Assembly: GCA_050273025.1 (NCBI GenBank)
Contig: CP158635.1
Span: forward strand, 11,098,001 to 11,162,000
Source of the DNA: Cenococcum geophilum
Lineage: Eukaryota
Reading direction: 5' to 3'
DNA: 64,000 nucleotides
Below the pieces are notes generated by a model. It was given only the letters and a program-made list of their open reading frames with translations, did no database searches and had not been told where the DNA came from. Every line of letters begins with the position of its first letter. Position 1 is the stretch's first letter. A program made the translations under genes and the position numbers. Shown here one piece after another: positions 1,100 through 23,800 of the stretch.

Positions 1100-2035
1100 T
1101 AACTAGGCTAGTCCCGTTATAATATATTAGGCCTATAGTAGGGGTAGCTACGCAGCTAGCTATTAGGTTAACTATAGGTTATATAGCTAGTATTATAGGA
1201 GCTACAGATTATATTAAAGCACTATAGGCCGTTTTTCTAGTACTTATAGTCTAGTTAAAGAGGTTTTTGGTTTTTAACTAATTAGCGCGTATTTTAATTT
1301 AATAAAGGCCTTAGTTAATAGCTAGACATTAGTTTATAAGTTTCTGTAATATCTATATAGTAGCAAAAACTAGTAATATAGCCTACTATAGGTTTAGTGT
1401 AAGCTTATTAAAGAGTTCTAGTAATAGGTCTTTCTAAGGGAATTAGGTCTAGCCTACTAGGTATAAAAAGCGGGTCTAAAAGGTTAAAAAGGTCTCTATT
1501 ATTTTTATATTTAGGCTCTTATAGTTAAGGTATGCGTTTTATACCTTAAAGGGGTCCTTATAAATAGAAGATTAGTAATTAATTATTTCTTCTTTAAAGA
1601 TAAAGGGTTTACTAAGCCCTTAGTATATTATAGGCGTATATATATCTAAGTATCTCCGCTAGTATAGTTAAAGATGTAGGTTATTTTAGCTCAAGGCGTA
1701 GAGAAGTAATTAGTATTAACTTTAAGCTTATCCTATAATTAGAGCTTCTAGTTATTAAATATAGGGTTTATTTTATCTATAAGTTATAAAGGGTCCGCAA
1801 CCTCTATAGATTATAATAGTGCTATATAGGCCTTAACGGGTTTTCTAAGGCGCTAGAATAGAGCCTAAAGAACTATAATAAGCCTATTTAATAGGTTATT
1901 GCTAAATATAGGAGTGCTTTTAGTTTTAAGTAATTCTTATAGCTGTTTAATTTTAGTATTAGTATAATAAAGCCTTATAGGAAATACTATGGTAAACTTA
2001 TTAATGGGCTAGGTATATAGGCTAAGAAATAGTCA
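1100..2035 (-). mobile_element. RIP-degraded Gypsy gag fragment, paralogous to the gag at ~19,800-20,682
   Basis: Colinear similarity with 20,000-20,580, e.g. CTTAAAGGGGTCCTTATAAATAGA near 1545 and 20185, and ATTAACTTTAAGCTTATCCTATA in both. Confidence 0.8.
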
Positions 2036-2044
2036 AATATAAAT

Positions 2045-3052
2045 ATAACTAGTGGAGTAGGTTACCTAATAGATTAACTCTAATTATATTTTAAGATTTA
2101 CTATAAAAAAGAGAACTATTTAGGTAGGGACTGTAATTTTTTAAATATATAATACTACGCCTAAGAAAGATATAAAGTATATTAGTCTGTTAGTATATTA
2201 ATATATTACATTCCTATATTTTTATATTTCTATATTTTAAACTTATAATATAACTAGTTATATAACTTAGCTACTTTTTATCCTATAGCTTAATTAGTTC
2301 TAGCCCCTCCTATACTATTTTAACTAACCTATTTATATCTTTTTTTAATAGTTCTACTACTTCTAATATAAGGTCCGTAATACTATTCCCCTTATCTTTA
2401 TTTTATTCTTAAAGATATCTTTTATCTTTAAGTTATTTACTAAAGGTATAGCATTCCTATTTTTAATTTAATAACCTTTATTATTTCTAATACCTCCTAT
2501 TAAATCTTTTATATCTAACTGTTATAATTAGCTAGTAATATTTATTCTTTTACTTAATAAAGTTATATTATCCTATTCTTATTATATAAAAAAAGTTAGT
2601 ATATATTATAATCGCGGCTTTATTTAGTTACTAACCTTCTTTTTATGCTAAGTATATATAAGCAAATATGCAGTCGTCCTATAATATTTAATCTATCTTT
2701 AACGCTAAGTTTATATATCTTATAATTTTATATAACTATCTAGTTTCTTATCTAATCTACTATAGGGTTTTATATATTAGTAGCGGCTAAAAAACTAAAG
2801 AGTAAGCTAGCTAAGGCTCTTATTAAAGTTTAACATTATTCTAATAAAGCGTCTTAGGCCCTAAAGGCTTAACTTAATACTTATATTTAACTAAGCCGTC
2901 TTATAAAGGTTTATAAAAAGGTATACTTAAAAGAGTTGCGTTTTATAAAGTAAGGTCTCTTTAAGCTTAAGGCTAAAGAGGCTAAAAGAGATTCTAATTA
3001 AGAAGAGGTAAAAATAATTTATACGCTAGTGGTAGATCCCTTAGATAACCTA
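2045..3052 (-). mobile_element. Truncated 3' end (partial LTR, PPT and antisense ORF) of a relative of the 9063-17224 Gypsy family
   Basis: 2045-2382 resembles LTR 9063-9489 (ACTAGTGGAGTAGGTTACCTAATAGATTAACTCTAATT) and ends GTCCGTAATA; a pyrimidine tract (minus-strand PPT) and a homologue of the Cys-rich antisense ORF follow. Confidence 0.75.
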
Positions 3053-4930
3053 TATTAGAATTAGCGAGGGAGATGCTGACTAAGCTCTGGATATATTGCG
3101 AGGTCGAAGTCCGCATATAATCTATATAGACATTAACCGCATTATAAGTCAATTAATATTCATCCCCTGCGTCATCTCTATCATTAATTAGACCCTTAAG
3201 ATAGCTTTATTATAACCTTATAACCTTGTAATTCTAACAGGTTATAAGCCCGGGTACTAACACTACTCCTAACTTAAAATTAACCCCCTAAAATAACCTT
3301 AATAACACCTATATACGATTATAAGGCCAGTAAAATTATTATCTTTAATGGAGACAACTTTGCAGATTGGGAACACACCTATAAAGTAGCCCTAATTATA
3401 GTAAAAGGATGGGATTTTATTACTAGTGCAGAGGATCTAGCTTGAGTTAATTTAGGTAATAGGAAAAGAAGAAGAGGGGAAGCGAATAAGATTATCTTTA
3501 ACTCTATAGGAGACAACCGTTAGGAAGAGATGCGTACAATAATAAAGGAGTATAATATTTAGGGAATATAGGAAGGAATAAAGAGGTTTAATAAGGCTAA
3601 TAACGAGGTCTATATCTCTAGACTTTGTAGGGAGTTCTATAGTACTACATTTAACCTTATAAAGATGCGAATTATTAGGTTTACCTATATACTAAATTGA
3701 TTTAAGATTAATCTAGCCTTTATACCTTAAGCACTTACTAATACTAATATTAAAGAGTAACTTTTCTTGGCCCTCCTAAGCGATGTTATATAGTAAAATG
3801 TAAAGACCTAGTGTCTATAAGACAAATAAGACCTTAAGAGTTGCATTACTTCTTTAGAAGCAAGAAACTGCTCTCCCTATATAAATATAGACTACTGCAC
3901 TTATATATAAGAGGAAAGATAAACCTAGGAGGAGAAGGGGAAACCGAGGTCGAATAAGGGGTAGAGGTTATACTAGTAGATTCAATTATTCCTTACGTTA
4001 TAGCTTATCGTCTTAAGTTAGCAAAGAGCTAAGATAACTAGAAAGAGACGAGTATTAAGTATACTATTAAAAAGGTTATTACTAGAAAGACTACCCCTAG
4101 CTTAAATAATTCCGATTTAATAACGCTAAGAAGAAAGATTAAGGTGTCTCTAAGGCTGAGGAAGTATGGAATGTAGTAATAGCTAAGGAAGAATTTAACA
4201 GCGATTTAATTTACCTTAACCCTAACCCTAAACGTGCTATGCTTTTATAACAATGTCTCTAGCTTAGGCTCTTAACTTAGGTGCAACTAAATACTTTACT
4301 AGTAATTAATTAGACCTAATATACTTAAAGAGATAGAATATACCTCAATAAGTGCGAACCGCGAATAGGATTATTATATCTGCTATAGGTTATAGCTAAG
4401 TTTAAATTAGCAGCCTAAGGCTAAAAGACGTCTAGCTTATACCTTCGTTTAAGATAATTAAGCTAATCTTAGTAAGGACTCTTACTTAGAAAGGCTACTT
4501 AATCACCTTTAATATAGATAATTAAGCTATTGGCAAGCATAAATTATAAGCGACGTTTAAGGCTATTATAAGGAATAACCTCTACGTACTATAAGAGCCT
4601 TAGGAAGCACTTAATGCAATAGCGAAAGCACACGATTTATAACTAAACGTTAGTAAAATAGATACTAAGCTATAGTACTGCTAAACTGGATATATAAATT
4701 ACAGCAACCTATTTAAGCTATAGCACTCCTTACTAGGCATAAAGCTTAGTAAAAGAGTAGTACTAGTTAGTAAGAGTACGTGCAAAGCTTATCTAGCTAG
4801 GAAAATACGAGAAATACTAAGTAAAAAGACAATTAAGTGCGAGAAGATACCTAGTTAAGGGCTATATTTTAATACTACGAGACGAATTAGTATATTAATT
4901 AGAGGCTATAATATAAGTAATAGGGTTATA
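3053..4930 (+). mobile_element. Ty1/Copia retrotransposon 5' portion (LTR 3053-3239, PBS, RIP-degraded gag-protease-start of integrase)
   Basis: LTR bounded by inverted termini TATTAGAATT...AATTCTAACA, immediately followed by GGTTATAAGCCC (RIP form of the fungal Copia PBS GGTTATGAGCCC); gag NGDNFADWE; protease-like ALNLGATKY (from LDSGATKH). Right boundary approximate. Confidence 0.8.
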
Positions 4931-5087
4931 AAGGTGTCCCTAGTTATAACTAATACGAACTACTACCTTCCTATTTAGGCTAGCTTATTTCCTAAATAAA
5001 TATACTGCCGCTTTAAACATCTATACATTAACATTTCCCCTTACTTTCTTACCCACAACTCCCTATAATACACTTAAATTTAAAGCC

Positions 5088-5600
5088 ATGCCTTACTGGC
5101 CGCGTGCTCTAGATATAGAAGATTATTTATAAGCAGCTTTAAAAGCTTAGTGAATAATAGGACTTTATAAAAGCGCTAAAGCTTATATAAAAGCCTATAA
5201 GATTAATCTAGTTACTTTCCACTAGCGGCTTTAAGGTAGATCGCAATCTTACTAAATCGCCTATGTTAACTAATATTGTATTACCCTAGCTAGCGAGGCA
5301 GCAATTACTTAATATTATATTTATCTTACTAAAGCCGGGTTTCTATATCAATACTATATAATTTAGATAATTATAACACTTATTCTTTGGCGCGAAAACT
5401 CTAACTTTCCTTACTATACTAAAATCGCGCTACTTAGTATAAAATGGATATATAGCTTCTTAAAACGGTAGGAAGAGCTTTATACTTACTATATATAATT
5501 AATTAGCTTAGAACGCGCTATTGCTAGTAATAGTCCTACTCTAGTTAAGAGGTTTTTTACTAACTACTCTAATGCAAAGACTTAGTATAATATTAATAAC
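5088..5600 (+). mobile_element. Fot1/pogo-like (Tc1-mariner superfamily) transposase N-terminal fragment, RIP-degraded
   Basis: From ATG 5088: SAKAYIKAYKINLVTFH*RL*GR...LASEAAI...KWIYSFLKR resembles the HTH_psq plus CENP-B HTH of pogo/Fot1; cut off by the LTR at 5601. Confidence 0.7.
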
Positions 5601-8102
5601 TGTTACGGCACTGACCTAACGCATACTGTTTTATACTATCTTGTACTATCTTATACTACTTCCTACTATTAGCTAGCCCACCACTAGCGCCTTAGCGGCT
5701 GGCCCTATTATTTATATACAATACCCCCTTTTACCTTTTTCTCCTCTTTATACCACAACAAAGTTATTTAGTCTACTTTATTGCAGCACCGTAATAGTTT
5801 ATAGTATCCCTAATCGCGCCCTGTCACAACCTTTATTTTTTTCTAATTTATTTTTTTCGTTTTCCTAGTATAATTGCGACCTAGCGCGACCAATAACACT
5901 ATACTATAAGTCCTAGATAACCCTAGCATAGTTATAACAATCTTAGTACCATAGCCAGCCTTATAGACTTTAATTTCCTTATATAGATCCCTTAAAATGG
6001 GCGACTATAATATAGATAATACCCCATTGGCGAATACACGCGAAGTACTCGCCTGCCTTTTTAATACCTTTTATACCTATATTACCTAGGTAATTAGGAG
6101 CAGCCCGGAGTACTCTAAGGACCTTAATATAGCAGGAACCTTCTAGCACCTCTCTATATGTATAACTTTCCTAACTAGCGTTAAAAACGGTCTCTAAGCC
6201 GTCTATAATAAAGGCCGAACTATAAAGTCCTAACTTAAAGAAGCTTAATACAGAATTAACTCCCTTAAGATACTTAAACTATATATATAACAATATAAAT
6301 AGCAAGCCTTTACAAACACTTAGACCATATAAAGTTTAAGCCTTTAGATTATTATACTTACCCAGACTATTATTAATAAGAATACCGCTACTAGCTCTCC
6401 TTTTCTAACTAAGCCCTATAGAAAAAAACGTAAAGTAAAAGATTTAACCCTATTTAATGGCAAGGGATCACTAACTAAAAAATAAAAAAAAATAAAAATA
6501 TGGGAAATAAAGATCTAAGGCGCCTCCTAGAGAGATATAAAGTGCTTTAAGGCCCTAATGGACGAAGTCCTCTATATGTTAGACATGCTAATAGATAAAT
6601 CTTATAACTATATTAAGCATAGCCTTAATATGCTACGCATATACCTAAACAACTTAAGTAAATAGACCTTCTCTAACTAAGAGTCTATGTTTATATATAT
6701 AAGGAAGCACTATAAGACTATAGATATAACCTAAGTAGCTAAAAATAAGCTAGATACCTTAAGCTAAGGTGAGCGTAACTACTGGTTCTAGAAAGCAGAG
6801 CTTAATAAGTTAATAATTAAAGTAAACAAGACTAAGGAATAAAAAGTGGATTTACTTAAGAAGAATATTTCCTTTAAGATAAAGGACCTGGCCCTTACCC
6901 TTAGCTATAAAATTGGCGATGCTAACTATAAAGGCTAGAGCGAGTAGATGGATGTATTTGCTTATAACCTATAGAACTATACCTACTATACTAAGCTAAA
7001 TACCGCTAAGCTAAGTACCGCTAGCGGCTATTAACCTACATTACTATAGAATAACCTAATAAACCTTAACGCCGTTAAGTTTGGTAGTAGTAGTAATAGT
7101 CTCCCTAATAACGTTTAAAGATATTATATAGATAACAGACTTTATATAGCGTGTGGTTAACCTAGTTACTAAAAAGATGCTTATAACCCCTAGAAGAACC
7201 TAAATCCCCTTTTAATACTATTACACTAACCCCCTCTTAGCCACGGCGGATTCTTTAATAGAGGGGATAGTAGTTAAGGTAGTAACCGTAGATAAGGACA
7301 TAGGTTTAGATATAGAGACCCGCCCCTATAATTTCCTTTCCCAATATAGCCTTAGCCGATAGTCCCGTACGCGAACTATAAATAAGTGCTCTATGCTACT
7401 ACTAATTATAAGACCAGCCGTATTATTGGTGAAGTACCCTCTAGTATATATACACCGTTAGAGACTAACACGTTAGGATATACTAGCTAAGACCACAGCT
7501 ACTAGCTAAGCCCTATAATTTAGCTATTAAAAGGCTAACCCTTGGACTAAGTTGCCTTTAAGGGTTAGAACTATACGGGGAGGAGGATAAAAGAATTAGA
7601 TCTATACTACTAGATTAGTTAGACCTTATTTTAAGCTAGCTATTACTTAACCTTAGAATAGTAAATAGCGATAGGAATGCTATCCTTATTTAGACCTACC
7701 TCTTTTTACCGCGTAACCTACTCCTATAAGTTCTTATTAAAATAGTAAGCCTTATTAATACTGGTAGTATAGCACTGGTGTTTATAGATAAAGACTCGCT
7801 TATAAAAAAGTATAATATTATAAAAAAAGACTCCTAGTTTTAAAACCACTTCGCCTTATTAACGGACTCCTATCTGGGTTTATTACCCACTACTTTATAG
7901 TAATAATAATAATTAGCTATTATATAGAATCTATACTCTTCTATATTATAAAGTTATTACCCTCTATACTAGTAATTCTTGGAATGCCCTAGCTTAAAAA
8001 GTATAACCTAAGGGTAGACTTCCCTGCCCTAAAGCTTAAGTTTAACTCCAATTACTATACCTATAACTATCTTTTATAGTATATTCCTAACTGTGACTAA
8101 GT
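5601..8102 (+). mobile_element. Gypsy retrotransposon 5' portion (LTR 5601-5796, gag, protease), truncated
   Basis: TGTTACGG...CCGTAATA LTR; gag KVKDLTLFNGKG and degenerate zinc knuckle LYIACG*PSY*KDAY near 7140; protease ALINTGSIALVFID near 7750. Confidence 0.8.
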
Positions 8103-9062
8103 AGCGGTAGTAGTTTGCCTTAGTTATCTTAGAAGTAGTTAATAAAGGGCTAGAGTCTCTAGTTTAAGTATTAATTTATAATCTTTGTCTAACCATCTAT
8201 TTAGGGGTGGTATATTATAGAAAACTTTAGCCTAATACTAAGGATTTAGGTAAACTTATTCCAGAAAGCTAATATAAATTATGGCCTATAATTGGATATA
8301 ATAGTATCTAGTAGTCTATAGATTTGGTAGATATAATAGATATATAGTTAGGCTACCTCCTTAGTATTAATGTTCTTATAACAGGGGATTAAGAATAGGC
8401 GCTTGCTAAAATGGTTAACTAGGATTATAACCGCATTATATCCGTTACGGTCTGTAGATAGCTTATAGAAGTCCATAGAGATATGCTGCTAGGGGCGTTC
8501 TAGTATTAGGAGTGGCTTTAATAGTTCTAAGGTCTTATCTTATAGAATTGTAGATCTATAGCAGTTATTATAGTTCCGTATATAGCGGTTAATATCTATA
8601 ACTATTCCAGGCTAGTAGTAGCGGTCGCTAATAATTCTACGGGTCTTATTTTTTCTAGGGTAGGCTGTAGAGACCTAGGTATGCGCTTTAGCAATAAGCT
8701 AAGTCTATAAGTTCTATTCCTTTACTACTACTAGCCTTTCCTGGTGTTTAAGTAATCCATTTTTAAGGGACTATAGGCTGGTATCGCCCTTTGCCTTTTT
8801 ATGGTACTCTTGTAAAGAAGGGGCCGTTCGGTTTATCTATAATAGTTTATTAATAAAGTTAAGTCCTAAGGGGTTAATAGGGCACATCTCGGCGCATAAA
8901 GAGTCCGTATGTAATTCTGCCCATATCTGGGGGTTAAGGTATTCTAGTTATAGTAGTATTTAGGTTTATAAAGAGATCTTTATAGCTACCTAGTTATCTA
9001 AGTCCTGTTTACTCCTTATAAGAGCGTCTATATAGTTAGTAGTGCCTAGCCTATACCTAATT

Positions 9063-9489
9063 TATAACGGAACCTTGTAGCAAGAATTACGGTGGGTCCT
9101 GTTATTAGGCTAGGTATATAGGTGATATAAGTATAGAAGTCAACAACGTAATAATAACTGGTGGAGTGGTTGCCTAATAGATTAACTCTAATTGTATTCT
9201 AAGAATTACTACAAGGAAGGAACTATCTAGGTAGGGATTAAGGGTCCTTAAATACACAACCGTACTCCTATAAAATCCTTCTTATATATAATATACGTGT
9301 GCTCTATCTACTCTGTTATAGATTATATAGATTATATAGATTATATAGATTATATTATATGACCTTAGCTACTATTTCTTGTTATATAGTTCTACCGGTT
9401 TTATTCTAAACTATGCTTAAATTAACTAACTAGCTTCTTCCGTCTCTTCTCTAAGTAGTTATAATATTGTACTTAAAGCGTCCATAACA
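9063..9489 (-). repeat. 3' LTR of element B
   Basis: Direct repeat of 16798-17224; the differences noted are transitions; T(G>A)TAACGG...CCATAACA ends. Confidence 0.93.
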
Positions 9490-9558
9490 CTATCTCCCTC
9501 CTCTTTATCTTTATTCTTAAAGATTTAAAATATCTCTAAGTTGTTTACTAGAGGTATA

Positions 9559-10085
9559 ATGTCCGTCTAATTAATTTAGTTAATATTATTACTTATTATA
9601 CCTAAAGCAATTTCTTCTTCTACTGCTCGTCGCATTCGCACTATTGCTGCGATATTATCTCTTAGTGAGATTATGCCGTCTCCGTGTTCTCGCTGTTTAA
9701 AAGAGGGGTTAGTTTATATTATATTGGCAAACCTATCTTCGCGATAACCGTCCTCTTATTTAGAGTGCATTAAAGCGAATATTTATTCGTCCTATGACGT
9801 TTGCTTTATCTCTAATATTAAATATACGTAACCTATTACTTTTAATAGTTATCTAGTTCCCTAATTAATTTATCTTAGGGTTTTATATTTAATCTACTGC
9901 TACGCGGCTGGATAATAAACTGTCTGTTGCCCTAGTAGAGTTATATTATTCTTATAATACGGAATATAAGGCTACTAAAGCTTAGTAAAGAGCCCTTAAT
10001 TCCCGTCTTGCTATATCTACTTAGTTAATCCATCTTAAAAAGGTTTATAAGAAGGTACGTTTTAAGGAGTAGAAACTTATAGTGT
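9559..10085 (+). pseudogene. RIP-degraded antisense Zn2Cys6-like gene inside element B
   Basis: MPSPCSRCLKEGLVYIILANLSSR*PSSYLECIKANIYSSY; reverting three TAT codons to TGT gives C-x2-C-x6-C-x13-C-x2-C-x8-C; probable intron 9824-9878; homologue at ~2480-3000. Confidence 0.6.
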
Positions 10086-13000
10086 GGTGGGGTAAAATGG
10101 GCCACTGCTTAGTGCCTTGGCATTTTCCTGTATATATCGAGCCTTCGGCTTCTCTCTTTTTCTCTATCACGACCGACCGGGAATATATTCTTTCCTTTCT
10201 TCTTACTGACTGCTTTCCTACTGATTGATTACGACTGACTGACCGACCGACAGACAGATAGCACTGTGACTTTCCTATCTGAGAGTGGTCGTACCCTCCC
10301 ACAATAGAATAAGGTTTATAGGAACTTAGTAATAAAAGAACGGGTTCTCCTCTAATAGAGAAGGAAATAGATCTAAGTAGTTTAGCAACTACTTCTCCTA
10401 GGTCCCCCTTAGGTGACTTATTCTTTAGCAATCCTTCTTTTTTAATACTGCCTAACCTAATCTCTTCTAATACTCCTGTACCTTTCCTATAGCATTCTTT
10501 AAGTTTTCTAGTAGTTCCTAAGTAGTCTTAGTATAGCCTATCCACTTAACCTTATACTATATTTTATCGTTAATGTCCTTATAACTAACGATCCTTAAAA
10601 CTTGCTATTTGTCTTCTTCCTATCCTCTATATATATCTGCTTTGTAAACTAGTGGCTTAATATTCCTATATACTGGCTCTAGCATTATAATATACTGTAT
10701 AGGGTAGATCTTTATTCTAGTTAGTAGGTTTAACTTAAACGTAATTAGTGAAATCCTCTATGTAATTTTAAAAGGTCCTAGTCTAACATAGTCTAACTTC
10801 TTACTTAGTTATCAACTCTTAAAAATTTTGTATAGTAGCTATACTTTATCTCCCTCCTTAAGATCTGGTCCCTTAGATCTCTTAGCGTTATAGTACTTTT
10901 TTATTCTCTTTTATACCTTTTTTACTAATTCTATAAGGTCTATATAAAGATTTATTAACGTCTTTATTCTTTCTTTAGCTATACTACTCGTTTTCTTTAC
11001 TTGCCGTAGTAACAGTAATGTCCTTAGCTTATATCCATAATTTGCCTTAAATAGTAATATGCCTATTCCTTCTTAAGGTGTTATATTATATGTAAACTAT
11101 ATAACTAGTAATAGCGATACCTAATTATTTTATACGTGATTAATATAATGTCTTAGATACTGTTCTAGCGTCTAATTTAATCTTTCCGTTTAACCGTCTG
11201 TCTATAGATAATATGCGGTAAAAGTTACTACTCTAACTCCTTACTTCGCTAAGAATACCTTTTAGAATACTGCTATAAATCTTAGATCTCTATCTAATAT
11301 AATCTTGCTTAGTACTCCATGCCTTATAAACACTTCTTTAATATAGATTTTAGCGACATCTTCTACTAATATTTCCTTTGTGTATGCTATAAAATATCCC
11401 TACTTTATAAGCTTGTCTACTATTACTAAGATTATATTATAATCTTGTCCGGTAATAGGATCTCTTAATTTTAGTAACTTAATAATAAAGTTCTATAATA
11501 TAACCTCCTATAGTCTCTCTAGTGTTTTAATAGGTTATAGCCCTCTATATAGTCTATATCTTATTAATTTATTTCTTTAGCAATCTAAACATTCCTTTAT
11601 AATTTTTCTTGCTAAGCCCTAGATTCCGTTAATAATATACTCTTTCTAGAGTCTTAATACTAAGCCTCTGGCTCTATTATATTCCTAAGTTAATCCCTTA
11701 TAGAAGTTCTTTATAAACTGCTCTGCTATACTTCTTAGAATATATTTTACTTCTTAATTTTTGTATATATCCGTCTATAGATCTTCTAGCTATACCTCTA
11801 GAATTCTTTATACCTAAAAGCTTTCTAGTGACTTGTAAACTTTATCTAGTTTTTCTTAAGTTGCTATAATTTTTAGATAATTATACCTAATCAATCCGTC
11901 TGTGTCTTTTCGCAGTAAAGCCCCTAATGGCTTCTTATTGTTTTATAGTTTAGCCTTATAACTTAGAGTATCTGCTTGCGTATTGTCTGTACCCTTAGTA
12001 TACTAAATTTCGAAATGGTATTCCGTAAGCATTTCTACCTATCTAACCTATCTTTAGTTGAGTTCCTTTATTATTAGGAATCCTATTAGGTTCTTATAAT
12101 CTGTCTTAACTATAAATAGTTTTTCCGTGCCTTATAAGAATGCTCTCTATTTCTTTAGTGCTGTAACTATACCTAATAACTCCTTATTATAGATATTGTA
12201 GTTTAGTTCCGGTGGTGTTATCTTCTAACTATAGTATGCCACTAAGTGCTATCTATCTTAGTATTTTTATATAAAGTATGCCCCTAATATATAGTCTAAT
12301 ACATTTATTTCTACAACCGTTTCTAGTCCTAGTTAATAGATCTTAAGAACTGGCTCCTAGGTAAACAACTCCTTAACTTTCTTAAAGAGCTTTTTCTATT
12401 CCTCTCCCTATGCCTATAGTTCCTCTTTCTTTATTAATTGCGTAAATGGCTTAATATCCTTTAACTACTGCGCTATAAACCTTCTGCAGTAATTATAAAA
12501 CCCTAGAAATAATCTTAATTACGTAACATTCTCTAGTTCTTACCAATTTACTATAGCCTTAATCTTCTTTAGATCTATACTAAGTTGGCCTAATTTAATA
12601 ATAAATCTAATAAAATCGGTCTTCCTAGTAAAGAACTCGCATTTCTTAATTACTACTAGCATCTGTTCTTCTTATAGTCTCTTTAAAACCCATTTAATAT
12701 ATTCTCCGTATTCTTCCTTAGTTATTAAGTAGATAATAATATTGTCGAGGTATACTATAACAAACTTATTTAAGTATTCCCCTAATATATTATTAATACG
12801 CTTCTAGAATATTACTAGTGCGTTTATAAGCCTAAATTATATAACTAATAGCTTATATAGTCCTTCCTTTAACCTAAAGGCTGCCTTTTATTTATTACCT
12901 TCCTTAATTCTAATCTAATAGTACGCCTATCTTAGGTCTATCTTTATAAAGATTTACGCGTTACCTATTCTATTTTAGATTTGGCTAATTAAGGGTAAAG

Positions 13001-16000
13001 GATATCTATCCTTTTTAGTAATGCTATTTAACTATCTATAGTTGATACACAGCCTTAGTTTACTATTCTTTTTTAGTATAAATAGTACTGGATATCCTAC
13101 TAATAACTACAATGGTCTAATATATCCCTTTTATAGGTTTTCCTAGATAAACTCTTTTAGTACTCTACCTTCTTCTTTAGTAAGCTTATAGATTAAAAAG
13201 AACCTTAGACTTATTCCTAGTTCTAATTCTATCTTATAGTCCTATGCTATATATTCTAATAGCTTTTCACTCTCTAGTAACTATAGTTTCTTGCCATACT
13301 TATAGTATCTCTTTAGTATATAGCTTAATCCTTTTTCTATTTCTTTATAGGTTGCTCCTACTTAGTACTATACCAACTTAGCTTATTATCGCCTCTTACG
13401 GCGTTAAGTATCCCTAATATTAACCTAACCTATAATCTAATTGATCCTTAGATTATATTTCGATAACTAAGGCATTCCTAATACTGCCTTATCCCGTTCC
13501 AATAGTAGGATATTAAAAGACATCTTAATTTGTCTCCCTTTAATAGTTATCTAAATAGGTCCTATTTTAAGATTAATAATCCCTCCTCCGTAGGTTATTA
13601 GATCTCCTAAAATCGTAACTAATAGGTAAGATTGTTCCTTCTATCTATAAGGTAGTCCCATTTTCTTAACTACTACTAATAAGATATAGTTTCGCGTTAC
13701 TCCACTATCGATTAGCGCTTTAAACTACTAATCTTACTATTTAACTCGTAGATTTAGGTGTCGTCCTTAAATTCCTTTAAGGGTCTAAGGCTCTACTATT
13801 GGCTCCCTCTGGTCCTATGGGCCTCTATTTTTCCTAACTATTAGCTACTTAATCCTTATATACTTGGCTCGCTCTTTGGCTAATACCTAATTCGCTTTTT
13901 TTCTTTAATATACTATAGACACGTATTCTCTAGGTATTTCCACCACTATTATCCGTCTAAGCATTCTTCCGTAAGGAATCTTTCTAGTTAAAATACTAAA
14001 CTTCCTTCCTCTTGGACTTCTACTAGATGCCATCTATATATATATTTAGCATTCCTATATTATTATTTATCTATTATCTAATATATCCTTATAGGGTATT
14101 TCCAATTCTTTTCTTTTGGATTCTTATGCATTTCGTATATATTGTCCACGTACGCAATCCATAATAACGTATAGTGTACTAGGTGCTTTAGGTTAACTCT
14201 TAACTTATCTTTATCCTTAAGTTTAAACCATTATTATGTTAATCTAAACGTTATAACTTTATTCGCGGGTACTAAGATACACCTTTTACTTCTCCAGTCC
14301 TCTAAACGCTCCTTTAAATCCTTTAACGTTATTATTAAGGCTCCTTTAATATACGTTATAGCCTTTTCTATAATCGGGTGGTCCTAGATAACTCGTTTAT
14401 CTAACTATATATAGAAATCTTCCCACTTATTATTATGCCTTTACCTATACCACTTTTAGTATAGCTACTAGAGTATATACGGCTCGTCCGTAAGGAAGTA
14501 TCTTTTTATTACTATATTGTAACAGCCCTTTATATATCGTTCTTTAAACCTAGTAGAGATCCCTAGATCCTCTTCATTTTCTAGTTTAGTAAGCTACTTA
14601 GCTCTTAGTATACCTGCCCTAAGCCTATTAGTAATTCTTTGTACTAGTACTCTGTCCTTTATACGTCCCAATATACTAGATCTCTTATCTAGTTTCTATT
14701 CTTGCTATACGACGATTCTCTGTCTAAATTCTTCTATAGTTTCTTTTAGTTTGCGTCTCGCGCTTAAATCCTTAAAGTCTTTATACTTCTTAATCTTGGT
14801 ATTAATATTTCAATCTTTAGTCTAAACACTATATTCTACTAGTAAGTCTTCTAAGTCTATATATTTATCTCCTAGTCTAATTGCTGTTTATACCACAGAT
14901 TCTCTAATCTATAAAGAAGCCTTTTGCCTCTTATTTATAGGTGTCCTTATTTATACTCCGGATTCTTAACCCTTATAGATTTTCGGTCCTAAGCTTGCTT
15001 CTATCTTAAGCCTTACCCCAGCCTTAGTTTAACTAGGCTTACTTAGTGTTCTTATCTTATCTTAAGAGTCTTAAATCTCACTTATTTTATCTTAAGAGTC
15101 TTATACCTTAAGGAAACTTCGTCCTAAGCTCATTCGTATATTACTAAACTAAGCCGTTACTCTGCTCCATCGGTTATCGTCTATTATAGGTCCTTAAGCT
15201 TACCTTATCTCATCTTAAGAATCTTAAGCCTTTGGCCTTTTGCCTTTATTAAGTGCTAAAGTGGCTCGCTATCCTACTTCTCTTACGTCTTATAAAGCGA
15301 TAGATATCGTGTCTAGTGGGGTCTTAATCCCTACTAATGTTCCCTATTCCGTAGTGGAATTATCCTCTACCTCTAGTATAATATCTCCAAGGTCTACATA
15401 CCTTTAGTAAGCCGCCTTTATTGCCTTATCGTTATAAAATGTTTCGCCTATGTTGAAATCGTCGTCCTTAATGTCCAATCTGTAAACTAGTTTATTAGTT
15501 CCTTTGCATTCCGCTAAATATAGCTCTTATAGCCAATAGCTTGCGCCGTACTTAGCGTCCTTATAAATTCGGTATACGTTATTATAACAAAACGCAAAGC
15601 TTCTAATTAAACATTCTTTTGTTCCTCGCAGCATATTATCGTCCCTTTGTATATATATATCGTCTACTAGTCTCGTTCCTTTTACTATATAGTAACTCTA
15701 ACCACTCCTACAGTCTCTAACGTAATAACCCTATTTTCCGCAATTTATATAAGCTCCTTGTTTAAACCATTTTTCTTGCTATAGAGTCCGCCTAAATATC
15801 TTCTGCTACTAAGATCCTTAGTTTGGCCTCTACTCCTTAGACCTTTAATCACTTAATTCTTATCCTCTAGATTTCCATAATTTCTTATTCCATTTCTTAG
15901 ATTCTTTAGTACTACTTAGGTCCATTAGCTCTACGCCATACTATAGTTTTTAACTTAGCTTTTGTTATTGCGTGCTCTGCGCCTTATATAACTATAGAAC

Positions 16001-16797
16001 TCTATCCTAACCCTTCTTAGCCTACTTCCTTTAGTAGATCTAATTGTTAATCTTAATTACCTAATCTATTAGTTCCCGTAGGGTGTCCGTATCTTCTATT
16101 AGGATAATTACGTCCTAGACTTTAGCCTTAAGTCCCTATTTATACTATGCTATAAGCGCCCTATTATTCTACTTTACTTATATTGCTAACGTCTAGAACT
16201 GCGTTATATACTTAATTGCTAAGGTTTATTACGTAATATTTTAGAGTTTCCTTTCTGCTATAGTCGTTGCCTCTAGGTCTCTAAACATTTATATAAGTTG
16301 TTCTACAAATCCATTCCAGCTTAAGAACATAAATTATATCTCTTAGTTAGTGGTTATTATGCCGTTCGCTTATATCTCTGTAAGGTAAGACTTAAACTAC
16401 TTAAGTGCCCTTCCTATTAAGAATAGTCCTATATAGGCTATTTGATCTATAAATATTGCCAGCTTTACTCCTTCCTACACTACCTTAAAGTGCATTTATA
16501 TGAGGAATCCTTTAAGCTTTAATCTCTCTCCTAAGTACCTTTTAATTAATAGTAACTTAACCTTTACTGCGCCTATCCCGTTAATCCTGTTTTCTAATAT
16601 TGCATTATTTTCTATTAACTGGTTAACTATCTCTTGTAGTTATCCGACCGTTATAGGTTGCTATAAGTTAGTGTCTACTATACTAGTGTCGTTACCTAAC
16701 CTTAAAGTAGTTGCCGCCGTTAATAGCGTCGTGGTTGGTGCTTTTGGTGGCATATTATTCAACTTTCTATACTAATACTGTAACTAGGTAGTAATTG

Positions 16798-17224
16798 TGT
16801 AACGGAACCTTATAGTAAGAACTACGGTGGGTCCTATTATTAGGCTAGGTATATAGGTAATATAAGTATAAAAGTCAATAACGTAATAATAACTAGTGGA
16901 GTGGTTGCCTAATAGATTAACTCTAATTATATTTTAAGAATTACTATAAGGAAGAAACTATCTAGGTAGGGACTAAGGGTCCTTAAATACACAACCGTAC
17001 TCCTATAAAATCCTTCTTATACGTAATGTACGTGTGCTCTATCTGCTCTGTTATAGATCCCGTAGATTGTACAGATTATATAGATCACATTATGTGACCT
17101 CGGCTACTATTCCTCGTCATATGGTTCTACCGGTTCTATCCTGGACCGTGCTTAAATCAACTAACTAGCTTCTTTCGTCTCTTCTCCAAGTAGTCGTAAT
17201 ATCGTACTTAAAGCGTCCGTAACA
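16798..17224 (-). repeat. 5' LTR of element B
   Basis: TGTAACGG...CCGTAACA; direct repeat of 9063-9489. Confidence 0.93.
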
Positions 17225-20200
17225 TAATTAGGAAGTAAAATTAAGATAGGGCCTTTGTCTAGCGCGCTTACTAGGCCGTAAGGGCCTTTATTATTATAAA
17301 ATATTCTAGGGCCTTATAATCTAAAACTACCTAAATAGGCTTAGGGGCTCCTTTTAGCTGTATTTACTAGTACTAAAAGCTAGAAATAATAGCTAACATC
17401 TCTTTGTTATAAATTGGATAGTTTAGCTTAGCATCTATTATAGTCTTTAAATAGTAGGTAATAGGATGCTATTCTCTATCTAGCTGCTTCTGAGAGTAAA
17501 CACTAGCTATTGCACTATTTAAGGTATTAGTTTCCAGTATTAAGGGCCGTTTTGGGTAAAAATAGGCAAGTAAAGGAGTAGAGACCAGCCGCTTTCTAAG
17601 CTTATTAAAGGCCTGCTTATATACGGCGTTAAAATAAAAGGGCCGGTCCTTTCTAGTAAGGTAGTTAAAAGGTTAAGCAATTCTCCTATAGTTCTTTATA
17701 AAGCGTTAGTAGAAGTTACAGAAACCTAAGAATAACTATACCCCCTTTACGGTCTGGGGGGGTTCCTATTAGCTAATTACGACCGTCTTTTTTAGGTCTA
17801 CCTTAATTCCGTCCATACTAATAATAAACCCTAAGTACTTTATATACTTAACACTAAATTCTAACTTCTTAATATTGGCCTAGAGGCTAGCTTTCTAAAG
17901 CCGTTATAGGACTTTATAGATATACTCCTTATATTCTAATTTATTTTCGGAGTAGATTATAATATTATTTAGGGAGGCTGTGCGGAAGTTATTAAGGTAG
18001 TTAAATAGTATATTATTTATATATCGTTAATATATAGCCGGTCCGTTAGTTAGTCTAAAAGGCAGTACTTTATATTTATATATTCCGTAACAGGTATAAA
18101 ACGTAATAAGGTCTTTTAATTTAGGGTCTATTCTAATTCGGTAAAAAACCTAATAGATATTAAGCTTTGTAAAGATCTTAGCTCTACTTATTTAGGCTAA
18201 AGTCTTATTAAGTAAAGGCAGTGGGTAATGGTCTTTAAGGGTTAGGTTATTAAGCTTATAGTAGTTAATATAGAAATAAAGTCCTCTATTTAGCTTTTTA
18301 GTAAAATAAATAGGTAAGTTAAATAGAGCTTAACTAGGCTTAATAAAGCCCTTATCTAGGTTATTAATAAGATACTACTTAGTGGCCTATAATTTGGCGG
18401 TAGATTGCTAGCAGAGGGGGCTATAGCTAAGGGTGTCTTCTTTACCTAGCTTAATCTTAATCTTATAGTTATAAGGTCGATGAGGTAGAAGTATATTAGA
18501 TACTACTTTGGAGAATGTGTCTTTAAATTTCTAGTATTAGTAGGGCAGTTTCTGTTCTACTAGCTCCTTATCTATAAGCTTACTTCCCTCCCTACTAGAC
18601 TGGCTATAGTCTAGAGCTTCCCTATCCTTAATAATTTAGTTAATTTCGTATAAGCTAATTATAAAGTAATGGTGTTAGGTTAAATTAAGTTCCTATAGAA
18701 TCCTACGGCGCTAATACAGTAAATATTAACTAGTGGGAGGTCTGTAGATTTCTTTATAAATATTTATTAGGCCATGTTTTGCGGTATAGGGTTTATAATC
18801 TTCCTTAGCTTATATTCTATTTTCTATAAGTTATCCTTCCAGTTTATTAGTTTAGTGTATCGCCTAATATTCTTAGCTTTTCTTTATAGCTATATAGGGC
18901 CTAAGTTCTTTATAGGGGGCTTAGCTGGGTTAATACTAACTTCCTAAGTCTCTAATACGGGAGCCGTGGCGTAGGTAGTCTAGTAGTGGCGGAGTATACA
19001 GATCCGTTGCGGATTAAGCTGTATATCCTTCTTAAAAGCCTAGTCCCTACGCATTATATTAGCTTAGTAAACAGTGTTTATCTACGGCCGTATAAAGTTT
19101 TTTATTATAATACTAATTTCTTTTATAAAGGGAGGTGTTAGGGGTATAGTGTTAGGCTAGATAAGCCGTTTATTCTATATATTAAACTATAAGCCTAAAT
19201 AGGCTAGGTATTTTCTCCCTAAGATTATATTATAGTTTCTAGGGTCCGTAATAAGGAAGGGGACGTTAAACTGCCTTCGCCTATTAACGCGGAGGTATAT
19301 CCGTAAAATACTTATAATAGGTTGCCCTACTTATCCATTATACCCGCAAATAGGAATTAGTTTAGGTAGATCTTCTATAGGTATATTTAAAAAGTTAGTT
19401 AGTTTTATAGCGCACTTTATATTAATTAAGGTAAAGGTATTTACTTCTAAGTTAGCTAAAGCAGATGTTAAAACTTAATATCTATTACGGAATAAAGTAT
19501 AAGGGATAATATAGCTTCTTCTACTAACTAGCTAACCCAGATTAATATATAATATATTAATCCTTTTTAACCTTAAAGAGGAGTTTTCCTCTAGGGTTCC
19601 TCTTTTTCTAACTCTATACTATCCTCCTAAATTAATAAACCCTTATTTATCTTTACTGCTATTAGGCAGTCCCTTATAAAGTAGTCTTTTTAGCTATATA
19701 AAAAGCAAGTTTCTTAATTACTAAGGGCTTATCTATAGGGGTTGCTATATATAGGCCGAGTATATACTAGGCCTGTAGTAGGACTTGCTGCCTAACTAGC
19801 TGCTAGATTAACGGCGGGTTAAACAGTTAGGGCCGCAAGAGTAGCGGCCCGTACTAGGGCACTATTAGCTATTCTCATATTGCTTATAGCCTAGTTTAAA
19901 TGGTTCTTAGCTTTATATTACTTAGCGCGTGCCTTAATTTAACGGAGGCCTTAATTAATAGCTAGGTGGTAGTCCGTAAGTACCTTTAACGTTTATATAG
20001 TAGTAAAAACTAGCAGTATAGCGCGCTGTAGGTCCAAAGTAAGCTTATTAAAGAGGTCTGGCATTAGGTCTTTATAGGGAATTTAGACTTAACCAGCTAG
20101 GTATAAAAAGTAGGTCTAAAAGGCTAAGAAGGTCTCCGTTGTTTTTATATTTCGGCTTTTATAATTAAGGCGGGTATTCTATATCTTAAAGGGGTCCTTA

Positions 20201-20899
20201 TAAATAGAAAATAGGTAGTTAATTATTTCTTCTTCTAAGACGAAAGGGTTTACTAAGTCTGCAGCATATCGCGGACGTAGGTACGTCTAGGCGTCTCCAC
20301 TAATACGGCCGAAGACATAGGCTATCTTAGCTTAGTTATTAGGGAAGTAATCCTTATTAACTTTAAGCTTATCCTATAGTTAAAGCTTCTAATTCTTAAA
20401 TATAGGGTTAGTCCTATCTGTAAGTAATAGGGGGTCTATAACCTTCGCGGATCTTAATAACGTAGTATATTGGGCTAGGGCCTTAAGGACCGTAGCAAGT
20501 CTATCTAATAGGTTATTGCTAAGTGTAGGGGTATCCCTAGTTTTAAGCAGTTCTCGTAGCCGTTTAATTTTAGTATTAGCTGCCGCAAGCTCCGCCTAGG
20601 GGGTTAAGATGGTAATTATTTCTTTATCTAAGGTGTTTACAGGTCCTGCAGCTGCTTTGCCTACTACTATATTTCGTAGCATGGTGGTAAGGGTATTAGG
20701 TAATTCTAGGTAATTCCTTTAGGGGTTCTGGTCTGTGCGTGCCTTATGGGTTATTTCTTTAGGGTTTTATTCTTTTCCTTATAGTCCTAGTAATGTCCTT
20801 AGGGTCCTGTTCCGTATCCTTGTCCTATTTATAGTCTTATAGATATTTTTAAGTTCCTTTTTAGGAAGAAAGAGTAGGATAAGCTTTAGATAATGTTAG

Positions 20900-23800
20900 T
20901 GTTACGGCTCGTATAAACGCCTCTGAACCGAAGCTTGTAGAATGCTATATTATAAAGATACTAAGCTAAGGAGTAGAGAAGGTTAAGGAAAGGACACGTC
21001 TATATATAGGCGCCAAGTCTCTAAGCGAGCCCCTGACTAGGGTCTGTAACGGTACCGTGATATCACCCCCTCCTTTAAGAAAGCCTGCCCTTAGGCTTTG
21101 TATAAGCCCCTTATTAGAAAAGAAAGAGAAAAAAAAGAAATTTGGCATCTAGGCGCTTAATTGCGATGCCGGTTAACCTAGGACTTGCAGCAGTCCTGTA
21201 GCTCCTACTGCTGTAGAGGTATATTACTATACCTAGTTAACGTGGGGCAGGCAGCCGTCCTGTAGCTCCTGCTGCTGCAAGAGGTATATCGCTAGGAGCT
21301 CTCCATTAGTTGTTGTTCCTCCTCTAGAACTCCGGTACCTCCTAGCTCTACTATCCCCCCTTTTATTATAGCGCGCCCTAAGCCATAAAAAAAGGCCCCC
21401 CTAATCCCCCTTTTATAAAAAGGTAGGTAAAAAAGTTTTAATAAGGGTGGGAGGGTTAGGGAGTTATAGCTCGTATATATATCGGCATAAGCTCTTATCC
21501 GTTTAGTAGTAGTACAGTACTAGTAATAGGTCGTTTAGGTAGTAGTATAATGCTAGCAATAGGGTCGTATTCTAGGGAGCAAAGCTCTACCTAGTTATAT
21601 TTGGGTTATAGGCGTATTAGCGCGACGGGTTATTAGGGTATAGTTCCGTAAGCATATTAGTACGGTATCTTATCAGTAGTAGTTCGCAGGCGTATCGGCG
21701 CGGTAACTTATTAGGATTATAGCAGTACGGTACTAGCAACGGGCCGTATTTTAGGGAGCAAAGCTCTACCTTATATATAGGTATTACCGTAGGCGGAGCA
21801 GCAAAAGTCGGTCGGCTGTAGGTAGAGCAGTAAGGGTTAGCTAGCTATTAATAAAGCAGCAAGGGTTAGTTAGCTATAGGTAGAGTAGTAAGGGTCTATT
21901 GTAATAGCAGGCATATCGGCGCTATTATTTGGTTAGGTTTGTATTTAAATTACGTTTAGGTAGCATTTAAATTATATTTAGGTTATAGGCGGATCGCAGG
22001 CGTAACGGCACGATTGGTCTATCGGTTAGACTATAGGCGTAGCAGCACAGTTGTTATTAGGTCGTGATAGCAGGCGTATTAGCGCTATCGTTGTCTAGTT
22101 GGTTAGCTATAGGTAGAGCAGTAAGGTATTATTTGGTTAGGTAGTAGTACGGTACCAGCGTTAGGTAGTAATAGTAGGTTAAACATTCGGAGCTCGATCT
22201 ATTAGTTAGCTAGTAAATCGCAGGTATATCGGCACAATTAGTCGGTCGGGTATATATACGAATTACGTTTAGGTCGCATTTAAATTATATTCGGATTACA
22301 GGCGTATCAGCGCAATTATTTAATTAGTTGGCTGTAGGTAAAGCAGCAAGGTGTCGGTTCTTATAGCAGTGCAGTGCCAGCGTTAGGTGGTGATAGTAGG
22401 TTAAGCATAGAGTTTGTCTATTAATAGGTCGTAGTTCCATAGGCGTATTAGCGCAAAGCTTATTAATTCGGGTAGTAGTACGGTGCTAACGGCGGGGTCA
22501 TATTCTAAGGGGCAAAGCTCTCCCTTATATACAGTTATTACTATAGGCAGGGCAGTAGAAGTTGGTTATAGACTGCAGGCAGAGTAGTAATGGTCTATTA
22601 TAGTGCTACAAGCAAGGTAGTAGAAGATAGTTTGCCGTAGGCAGAGCAGCGGAGGTTAAATTAGTATTAGCTATAGGTAGAGCAGCTAGAGTTAATTATA
22701 GTGCTGCGAGCAAGGCAGTAAGGTATTGGTTAGCTACAGGCGAAGTAATAGAGGTTAAGTGGCAGTACGGTGCTAGCATTAAATAGTAATAGTAGGTTAA
22801 ACATAGAGCTCGTCTATTAGTTAGTTAAGTAGACTATAGGCGTATCGGCACAATCATTTAGTTAGGTTTATATTTAAATTATATTTAGGTAGCATTCGAA
22901 TTGTATTTAGATCGCAGGCGTAACAGCACAATTATTATCTATTTAGGTAGTAGTATAATACCAGCAACGGGGTTCGGCTTATAGGCGTATTGGCACGAGA
23001 GCTTATTAATTAGGTAGTAGTACGGTGCAAGCGTTAGATCGTAATAGTAGGTCAAGTATTCAGAGCTCGTCTATTGGTTAGTTGGTGGATCGTAGGCACA
23101 TCGGCACAATTATTTAGTCAGTAGATCGTAGGCGTAATGGCATAATTGGTCTGTCGGTGGATTGTAAGTATATTAGCATAATTAGTTAGTTAATGAATCG
23201 TAGGGATATTAGCACGATTATCGTCTGGTTGTAATAGCAGGCGTATTAGCGCTATTATTTAGTCATACTATAGGCGTAGCAGCACAGTCGTTATTAGGTT
23301 AAGATAGTAGGCATATTAGCGCTATTATTGGTTAATAAATCGCTAGCATAACAGCACAATCGTTCGGTCGACTATAGGCGTAGCGGTATAGTTATTGTCT
23401 ATTTAGGTTATAGGCGGTTATATTAGCGCAAGAGCTTATCTAAGCTTTATTACCCCCTCCTTTAATATAGCGCGCCCCGAGCTATAGAAAAAAGAAATAT
23501 AGCTTATATATATATCAGCACGAGCTCTTATCTATTCGGTAGTAGTACGGTGCTAGCGTCTAATAGTAGATAGTAGGCGTATCGGCGCTATTATTAGTCA
23601 ATTAATTGTAGGCATAACGGCACGATTAGTTAATTGGTTTGCATTTAAATTGCGTTTAAATTGCATTTAGATCGCAGGCGTAACGGCGCGATTATTATCT
23701 AGTTTGTCCAAATCGATTTTGTTATTAAAGCTTATATAGCTTAGTATTAACCTTATTGTTGGAGTATATAAATGCTTAAGGTAAAGCTTGTATAACTTAG

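Follow-up and report, generated by a model that had tools for sequence, protein, structure and literature searches.

A relic of an accessory gene lies on the antisense strand of a retrotransposon in a 64,000-nucleotide stretch of the Cenococcum geophilum genome (assembly GCA_050273025.1, contig CP158635.1, positions 11,098,001 to 11,162,000), hereafter called the window. The retrotransposon, element A, belongs to the Ty3/gypsy group and has been inactivated by repeat-induced point mutation (RIP); the gene is situated between the end of pol and the 3' long terminal repeat (LTR) and reads in the opposite direction. Judged by the copies compared below, it is common to hundreds of related elements and was selected as a protein, and we consider it probable that its product is a zinc-binding regulator of the element's own LTR. 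An earlier interpretation based on the letters of the window alone (the sequence-only reading) had proposed a spliced antisense gene with a GAL4-type zinc cluster at this place. The gene, its intron and the origin of its mutated codons are supported by our analysis, in which GAL4-type family membership is not borne out and the present copy proves to be dead.

Gene model and relatives

The peptide quoted in the sequence-only reading is read on the + strand from 9664, antisense to element A, while the pol domains recognised by Pfam are on the minus strand. Its motif consists of TGT at 9685 and 9694, TAT at 9715 and 9757, TGC at 9766 and TAT at 9793, giving three Cys and three Tyr codons at the spacing 2-6-13-2-8 as had been described, with one TAA within the motif. 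We searched all six frames of positions 1-24000 for the pattern [CY]x2[CY]x6[CY]x5-16[CY]x2[CY]x6-8[CY], requiring three or more Cys and allowing no more than one stop. It occurred once; the mean was 0.01 in 100 dinucleotide-preserving shuffles, only one of which contained any occurrence. Because the motif was picked after the fact this test alone is not decisive, and the matter is settled by comparative data.

Using the translation of the window (stops as X) as query, we obtained 34 short open reading frames (ORFs) in the same frame from other copies at 47-77% identity. A profile of these was scored against 1.84 billion cluster representatives and matched 251 clusters (50% identity) at E<=0.001, 150 of them at E<=1e-10; a later profile search matched 626 proteins. 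The protein matches listed all came from metagenome-type sources and were named only 'hypothetical protein'. In 254 of 314 retrieved proteins all six places of the pattern were occupied by C or Y, and 253 of these had a spacer of 13 residues between the third and fourth place. Cys was kept at places 1-6 in 127, 131, 64, 85, 146 and 147 of these 254 proteins, and eight retained all six Cys. Three ORFs from other families were essentially unmutated and intron-less, namely P0183 (152 amino acids), P0091 (110 amino acids) and P0231 (239 amino acids), and two further relatives, P0197 and P0200, covered exon 2 only. The less mutated relatives restore the six Cys at the same spacing, and the proposed spliced antisense gene within a Ty3/gypsy element with a chromodomain-like end is supported.

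Copies of the gene at the DNA level were all taken from one metagenome scan, which confirmed at least 600 copies; 80 of them were retained. Since the scan pattern demanded Tyr at the third Cys, the scan loci are uninformative on this place. The whole region was spanned by 67 of the 80 loci, which together with the window gave 68 aligned rows; the 13 partial loci were dropped.

RIP turns TGT into TAT (TpG to TpA). Throughout the 68 aligned copies the Cys codons read TGY or TAY and never CGY, apart from a single TCC at the fifth place, whereas the Arg codon between the first and second Cys reads CGY, TGY or TAY, as RIP of Arg predicts. As the Cys codons differ in this respect from the neighboring Arg codon, the six Cys are ancestral. 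The RIP origin proposed for the three TAT codons thus agrees both with the codon states and with the existence of six-Cys relatives of the same spacing.

The gene model reads as follows, in window coordinates:

9598..9823, + strand: exon 1 (start, 29-residue leader, six-Cys module; one internal TAA), aligning with P0183 and P0231
9685..9795, + strand: six-Cys motif C-x2-C-x6-C-x13-C-x2-C-x8-C, here C C Y Y C Y
9824..9878, + strand: intron of 55 nt in phase 1 (Trp codon split into T and GG), donor GT mutated to AT
9879..10082, + strand: first part of exon 2 (long helix / coiled-coil region), aligning with P0183, P0231, P0091 and P0197
10083..10303, unstranded: 221-bp insertion with TG...CA ends, outside the gene, flanked by the 4-bp target duplication ATAG (10079-10082 / 10304-10307)
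10308..10492, + strand: second part of exon 2 (acidic, Ser/Pro-rich tail and stop), with the C-terminal end common to P0231
2490..3154, + strand: relic of the same antisense gene in a second element (element B), 67% identical, with frameshifts

The sequence-only reading had placed the gene at 9559..10085. The region stands and its ends do not, as the conserved start is at 9598 and the stop, at 10490-10492, lies beyond the 221-bp insertion. The start codon is ATA in the window and in 57 of the 68 aligned copies and ATG in the other 11; the three bases of the stop are T in 68, A in 68 and G in 67 copies. In the deRIP reading of the 68 rows exon 1 is open and begins with ATG. Exon 2 contains two stops that were once Gln codons, which P0183 and P0091 still have there; 2 of 68 copies retain the initial C. 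Individual sampled copies carry 5-11 premature stops (median 8), and indels between families keep the frame. The sequence-only reading had staked its claim on a deRIP consensus with an open frame and six Cys and on a motif conserved between diverged families. The frame proved open apart from these two stops, the six Cys could be recovered, and the motif is kept across the 251 clusters.

The intron segment begins with ATACGT and ends with TAG. It measures 55 nt in all 68 copies, with A as first base in every one; of the terminal AG, the A is present in 68 and the G in 57 copies. The codon read through at the donor in other families is Cys (TGT), which fits a GT donor. P0183 and P0231 lack exactly this intron and read E-W-S-R-V across the junction. 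Joining 9823 to 9879 in the window gives K-W followed by RIP-changed residues and matches this junction; P0091 has one extra residue here. The 55-nt intron-like segment that had been noticed at 9824-9878 therefore holds up, being of fixed length in the aligned copies and skipped exactly by P0183 and P0231.

When the spliced translation of the window is compared with P0231, the match runs past 10082, resumes at 10308 and continues to the common C-terminal end. Positions 10082 and 10304 are joined directly in most of the 80 related loci, and contigs skipping the insertion were also seen. The insertion itself has a 70%-identical copy at L028:952-1206. Its coverage reaches hundreds to thousands in three metatranscriptome contig sets, and it was also read in a raw RNA-seq run, with sequence continuing past both of its ends; it may be a solo LTR or a small element of an expressed family.

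At its N-terminus P0231 differs from the model. Residues 1-30 represent a read-through of the LTR end and polypurine region in another frame, and the gene frame is entered just after the usual Met-Pro start, which P0231 does not have. This change of frame may be due to a frameshift or to a further intron upstream.

The gene in the window comprises 204 codons and has accumulated eight premature TAA or TAG codons, the ATA start, the AT donor, three Cys-to-Tyr changes and the 221-bp insertion. This copy is a dead pseudogene. The claim that the element encodes its own DNA-binding regulator consequently fails for the window, where the element now encodes nothing.

Selection on the frame and the host element

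Since RIP makes transitions only, we counted transversions, and took a column as a shared transversion column if at least 3 of the 68 copies carried the transversion, which reflects differences between lineages. Over all exons 89 of 615 columns qualified, distributed over codon positions 1:2:3 as 19:10:60. Outside the overlap with pol (9598-10061) the distribution was 17:6:50 (chi-square p 4e-10), and in the pol-overlapping part 2:4:10 (p 0.04). Transversions found in only one or two copies, which represent decay after insertion, were spread as 31:21:35. In the adjoining stretch 9440-9597 shared transversions occurred in only 5 of 158 columns. A gene on the minus strand cannot explain the periodicity because all three minus frames of 9598-10061 hold stops after deRIP (4, 11 and 4). 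From the codon-position bias of 17:6:50 together with the frame-keeping indels between families, it follows that the antisense gene evolved under purifying selection as a protein while the lineages diverged.

The features of element A and of the surrounding element B are the following:

9058-17224, minus strand: element A, bounded by direct-repeat LTRs
9058..9489 (432 bp), minus strand: 3' LTR of element A, adjoining the antisense gene; 89% identical to 16792-17224, with TG...CA ends in element orientation
9490..9520, minus strand: polypurine tract adjoining the 3' LTR on its inner side, seen on the + strand as a run of pyrimidines; read from the sequence
10062..13733, minus strand: pol of element A; Pfam domains in one minus frame (stops read as X)
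10461-10604, minus strand: chromodomain-like, weak full-length Pfam Chromo match (E 0.01, 16.2 bits vs a cut-off of 25.1)
10674-10853, minus strand: Tf2-type SH3 (Pfam E 0.0035)
12018-12404, minus strand: RNase H (Pfam E 4e-18)
12612-13079, minus strand: reverse transcriptase, RVT_1 (Pfam E 5e-17)
13461-13733, minus strand: aspartyl protease (Pfam E 0.0046)
16792..17224, minus strand: 5' LTR of element A, direct repeat of 9058-9489
about 8554-8707: integrase zinc domain of element B (domain match)
about 17237-18263: reverse transcriptase and RNase H of element B (domain matches)

Protease, reverse transcriptase, RNase H, Tf2-type SH3 and a weak Chromo match identify element A, as far as its domains allow, as a Ty3/gypsy retrotransposon of the chromovirus type on the minus strand. 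The weak full-length Chromo match was obtained in 2 of 4 copies tested; a score below the cut-off is expected because the sequence is RIP-damaged. G+C content is 23-38% per kb across the AT-rich positions 1-24000, and the dinucleotides show the signature of RIP: TpA/ApT is 1.71 and (CpA+TpG)/(ApC+GpT) 0.43 over this stretch, with values of 1.59 and 0.46 for element A itself, compared with 0.88 and 1.20 for 26000-64000.

The 3' end of the antisense gene overlaps the end of pol because exon 2 extends past the insertion to 10490-10492. After deRIP the pol frame is open past the chromodomain-like part to about 10062-10064, where TAA is found in 59, TAG in 8 and TGG in 1 of 68 copies; earlier majority stops in the pol tail are former CAA, CAG, CGG or TGG codons, which are intact in 4-25 copies. 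The two genes thus appear to overlap tail to tail by about 210 nt, with the final antisense codons facing the end of the chromodomain. Where exactly pol ends is uncertain, since a fully mutated Trp codon is indistinguishable from a true stop.

Element A is nested inside the older Ty3/gypsy element B, which occupies 1954-9057 and 17225 to about 20600 and has a related LTR at about 1954-2385. Three collinear blocks of 72-79% identity link 1212-1962 with 19852-20579, 18.6 kb apart, and end where the LTR of element B starts; they may be the flanks of element B within a still older repeat. Farther along, a 164-bp direct repeat (20897-21060 / 25035-25198, 93% identical, 4138 bp apart) sits where the AT-rich block gives way to the gene-rich half of the window. 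The pair encloses 21900-24500, a region rich in 60-100-nt repeat families spaced 200-1500 bp apart.

Product, candidate target and expression

Before RIP the gene encoded a protein of about 205 residues, in which a short leader and the six-Cys module were followed by a long helix and, at the end, an acidic tail. The structure of P0183 was predicted with AlphaFold2 in two runs, with 25 and then 62 aligned relatives. Both runs gave one long helix for residues 77-151 with a predicted local distance difference test score (pLDDT) of 94-99, and a further helix at 13-26. Short helices at 35-39 and 56-69, within the low-confidence Cys region, each begin at a Cys pair. A complex of two P0183 chains (28-152) with four zinc ions scored 0.50 and one control 0.38, which is not evidence either way. 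Pfam Zn_clus (PF00172) was the sole recurring family, matched by 9 of 62 members at E<=1 with a best E of 0.04; Pfam gave no match for the window's own translation or that of element B. The nearest cluster in the ESM Atlas, auto-named 'Zn(2)-C6 fungal-type domain-containing protein' (204 amino acids, 77 members, Ascomycota, score 0.90), can serve as a lead only, and so can the unnamed Ascomycota clusters that were all the Cys part alone retrieved there. An identity with DUF3716 was also considered, on account of one weak full-length match and an Atlas row, and rejected because the match did not recur (1 of 62 members).

We propose that the antisense transcript would start in or beside the 3' LTR, and that its intron would survive retrotransposition since the genomic RNA is the other strand. 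The six Cys would bind two zinc ions and the helix would dimerise the protein. Binding DNA at specific sequences, the dimer could then regulate the LTR of its own element, with the acidic tail as its effector part, so that elements of this kind would make their own regulator. A possible target is a short tandem array in the LTR that reads as CGG-N6-CGG after deRIP:

9317..9355, unstranded: 9-bp tandem array in the LTR, 4.3 copies (Tandem Repeats Finder score 78, 100% matches)

Relative to the direction of the element, the array is located in the upstream portion of the LTR. A direct CGG-N6-CGG repeat is a Hap1-type site, and direct CGG-N6 repeats in this position suggest, at low weight, a candidate regulatory site. 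About 20 of 62 aligned LTRs have a different pyrimidine-rich stretch at the site of the array (window 9310-9360), which also seems to be periodic. Other CGG pairs in the deRIP LTR were considered as Gal4-type sites; only the 9-bp array was kept, as a lead.

Several results weigh against parts of this proposal, and the first group concerns membership of the zinc-cluster family. The Cys region of P0183 was modelled with a pLDDT of only 47-67 in both runs, and a Foldseek comparison of the model with PDB returned 0 matches. None of the 62 members reached the 21-bit cut-off of Zn_clus (P0183 13.6 bits, E 0.075; P0204 13.1 bits), and P0183 and P0204 match only the second half of the profile, by way of the first triad and the preceding Pro. 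The family profile, built from mutated copies, found 0 matches among PDB sequences; P0183 alone found PPR1 as best match at an E of only 0.56, in the same register as the Zn_clus match. The GAL4-type consensus is C-x2-C-x6-C-x5-12-C-x2-C-x6-8-C, so that the loop of 13 residues is one residue beyond the range. In Gal4 a run of basic residues in the first Cys triad contacts DNA, and such a run is missing from the first triad here. With a Pfam score below the threshold and low confidence in the Cys fold, the GAL4-type Zn2Cys6 membership proposed by the sequence-only reading is not demonstrated. The zinc-cluster reading holds as a likeness and not as family membership.

A second group concerns target, function and expression. 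Of 62 aligned LTRs only about 40 contain the array, and CGG triplets abound in GC-rich DNA. As for a required function, every one of the 68 donors begins with A and 57 of the starts are ATA, so that the accessory gene may already have been defective in the master copy from which the family spread. We compared four RNA runs (one raw RNA-seq, three metatranscriptome contig sets) with 9400-10600 at 80% likeness. The stranded spliced reads suggested as a check were looked for, and no joint at 9823/9879 was seen in the four runs, which were of low depth, with reads from other mutated copies. Unspliced RNA-library contigs bridge the intron (9478-9899 in X15; 9576-9902 in X17), where DNA in the libraries is possible. 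The copies represented in these runs carry RIP mutations, and expression of such copies is not to be expected. Over 10384-10588 the first mate of X21 reads was mostly on the minus strand (37 reads, strandedness unstated), from which we draw no inference. The only hint of splicing comes from the intron-less ORFs P0183, P0091 and P0231, all on short contigs.

Alternative explanations and known systems

The strongest competing explanation accepts the gene and its selection and takes the product for something other than a DNA-binding factor, such as a zinc-stabilised interaction or RNA-binding module serving particle assembly, nuclear entry, integration targeting or anti-silencing. It would account for every Zn2Cys6 family test ending below threshold and for a Cys region without a confident fold. 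It is also favored by the weak full-length match of one member to DUF3716 (E 0.018) and by an Atlas cluster with DUF3716 on 28% of its members (score 0.76). Moreover, the passages of the source that treat brtn, an antisense gene of the fungal Boty elements, and the antisense ORFs of plants call their function unknown (PMC7264820). Among Pfam families, however, Zn_clus alone was matched repeatedly (9 of 62 members, as against 1 of 62 for DUF3716). A Cys cluster followed by a long helix and an acidic tail is, besides, the layout of a small Gal4-type activator. On balance we hold a product of this other kind to be somewhat unlikely.

A regulator of the LTR, the reading we prefer, could be extended far beyond this element. 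Many fungal Ty3/gypsy chromoviruses would then encode a small Gal4-like transactivator, a zinc-cluster dimer made from a spliced antisense mRNA starting in the 3' LTR, which binds short tandem CGG repeats of the LTR and switches the element on or sets its copy number. It would be the retrotransposon counterpart of retroviral regulators such as HBZ or Tas and would form a distinct, unrecognised branch of the zinc-cluster superfamily on mobile elements. In this full form the proposal is unlikely.

It is quite improbable that the antisense RNA is the working product, in copy-number control or as a source of small RNAs, with the frame secondary. Yeast Ty1 is regulated by antisense transcripts and the RNA-library contigs seen here are unspliced, but the codon bias of 17:6:50, the invariance of the six Cys places, the conservation of start and stop, and frame-keeping indels point to selection on a protein. 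Even less probable is an origin as a piece of some host zinc-cluster gene that this element captured a single time or has beside it by accident, in which case it would be no stable part of the element. Host sequence does get picked up by retrotransposons, and Ascomycota have very large numbers of Zn2Cys6 genes; yet the gene occupies the same place in at least 600 copies, in the older, 67%-identical element B and in 251 clusters at 50% identity, and no member reaches the Pfam threshold of the host family. That there is no gene at all, the Cys/Tyr pattern being chance in AT-rich mutated DNA and the conservation that of cis-acting DNA near the polypurine tract, is hardly credible: DNA mutated by RIP is rich in Tyr codons and the motif was chosen post hoc, but one occurrence was seen where 0.01 was expected, and six-Cys and intron-less relatives, codon periodicity and a constant intron length all contradict it.

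LTR retrotransposons are usually said to need gag and pol only. An accessory gene under protein-level selection across hundreds of diverged fungal elements points to a further, unstudied step in their life cycle. Should the product indeed bind DNA and regulate the LTR, this would account for the way in which such elements govern their own bursts and would provide a means of turning them on or off in fungi; the largest family of fungal transcription factors would also gain a mobile branch. For annotation, relics of this gene account for much of the seemingly 'non-coding' spacer that separates pol from the 3' LTR within RIP-mutated repeats.

With Zn2Cys6 factors such as Gal4, Ppr1 and Hap1 the predicted product shares the six Cys in two C-x2-C-x6/8-C triads, the long, possibly dimerising helix that follows, the acidic tail and the restriction to fungi, and its first triad with the preceding Pro resembles the second half of the Pfam profile. 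It differs from them by scores below the Pfam threshold in 62 of 62 members, by the 13-residue loop, by the absence of a basic cluster in the first triad and by being carried on a mobile element; in contrast to most members of that family it has only about 205 residues and no middle homology region.

HBZ of human T-cell leukemia virus type 1 (HTLV-1) is an antisense, spliced gene for a basic leucine zipper (bZIP) factor and is driven from the 3' LTR. The gene described here is likewise antisense at the 3' end of a reverse-transcribing element, is spliced according to the gene model and would specify a factor of the dimerising type, possibly also starting from the 3' LTR. HBZ is a bZIP gene of a vertebrate retrovirus without common ancestry, so that the likeness is one of logic only.

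Additional ORFs (aORFs) in antisense between pol and 3' LTR have been described for the plant Ty3/gypsy elements Grande, RIRE2, Retand and PvRetro13 (PMC7264820). Compared by description only, these agree with our gene in position, orientation, conservation within a family and a function called unknown. They differ in that their hosts are plants, that the elements are mostly not chromoviruses and that the passages on them describe no zinc-cluster-like motif. By the criteria of the aORF-3R class, the gene is situated between pol's end and the 3' LTR of a Ty3/gypsy element and runs on the opposite strand. It is present in most copies of its family and conserved like a protein (at least 600 copies; 67 of 80 whole; codon bias).

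Closest of all is brtn of the Boty elements, an antisense gene between pol and 3' LTR known since 2011 (PMC8365987, PMC4227169, PMC7264820). Our limited full-text literature search returned no description of a zinc-cluster-like antisense gene in fungal retrotransposons and only papers citing brtn. According to the passages concerned, brtn too is an extra gene of unknown function on the opposite strand between pol and 3' LTR of a chromodomain-bearing fungal Ty3/gypsy element. Compared by description only, in its position, its strand and its host element, the antisense gene of element A is most likely of the same kind. To the passages citing brtn the present analysis adds the full gene model, the evidence of selection, the architecture of the intact protein and the candidate LTR site. 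For approaching the function of brtn-type genes, the family described here offers intact sequences and a candidate target site.

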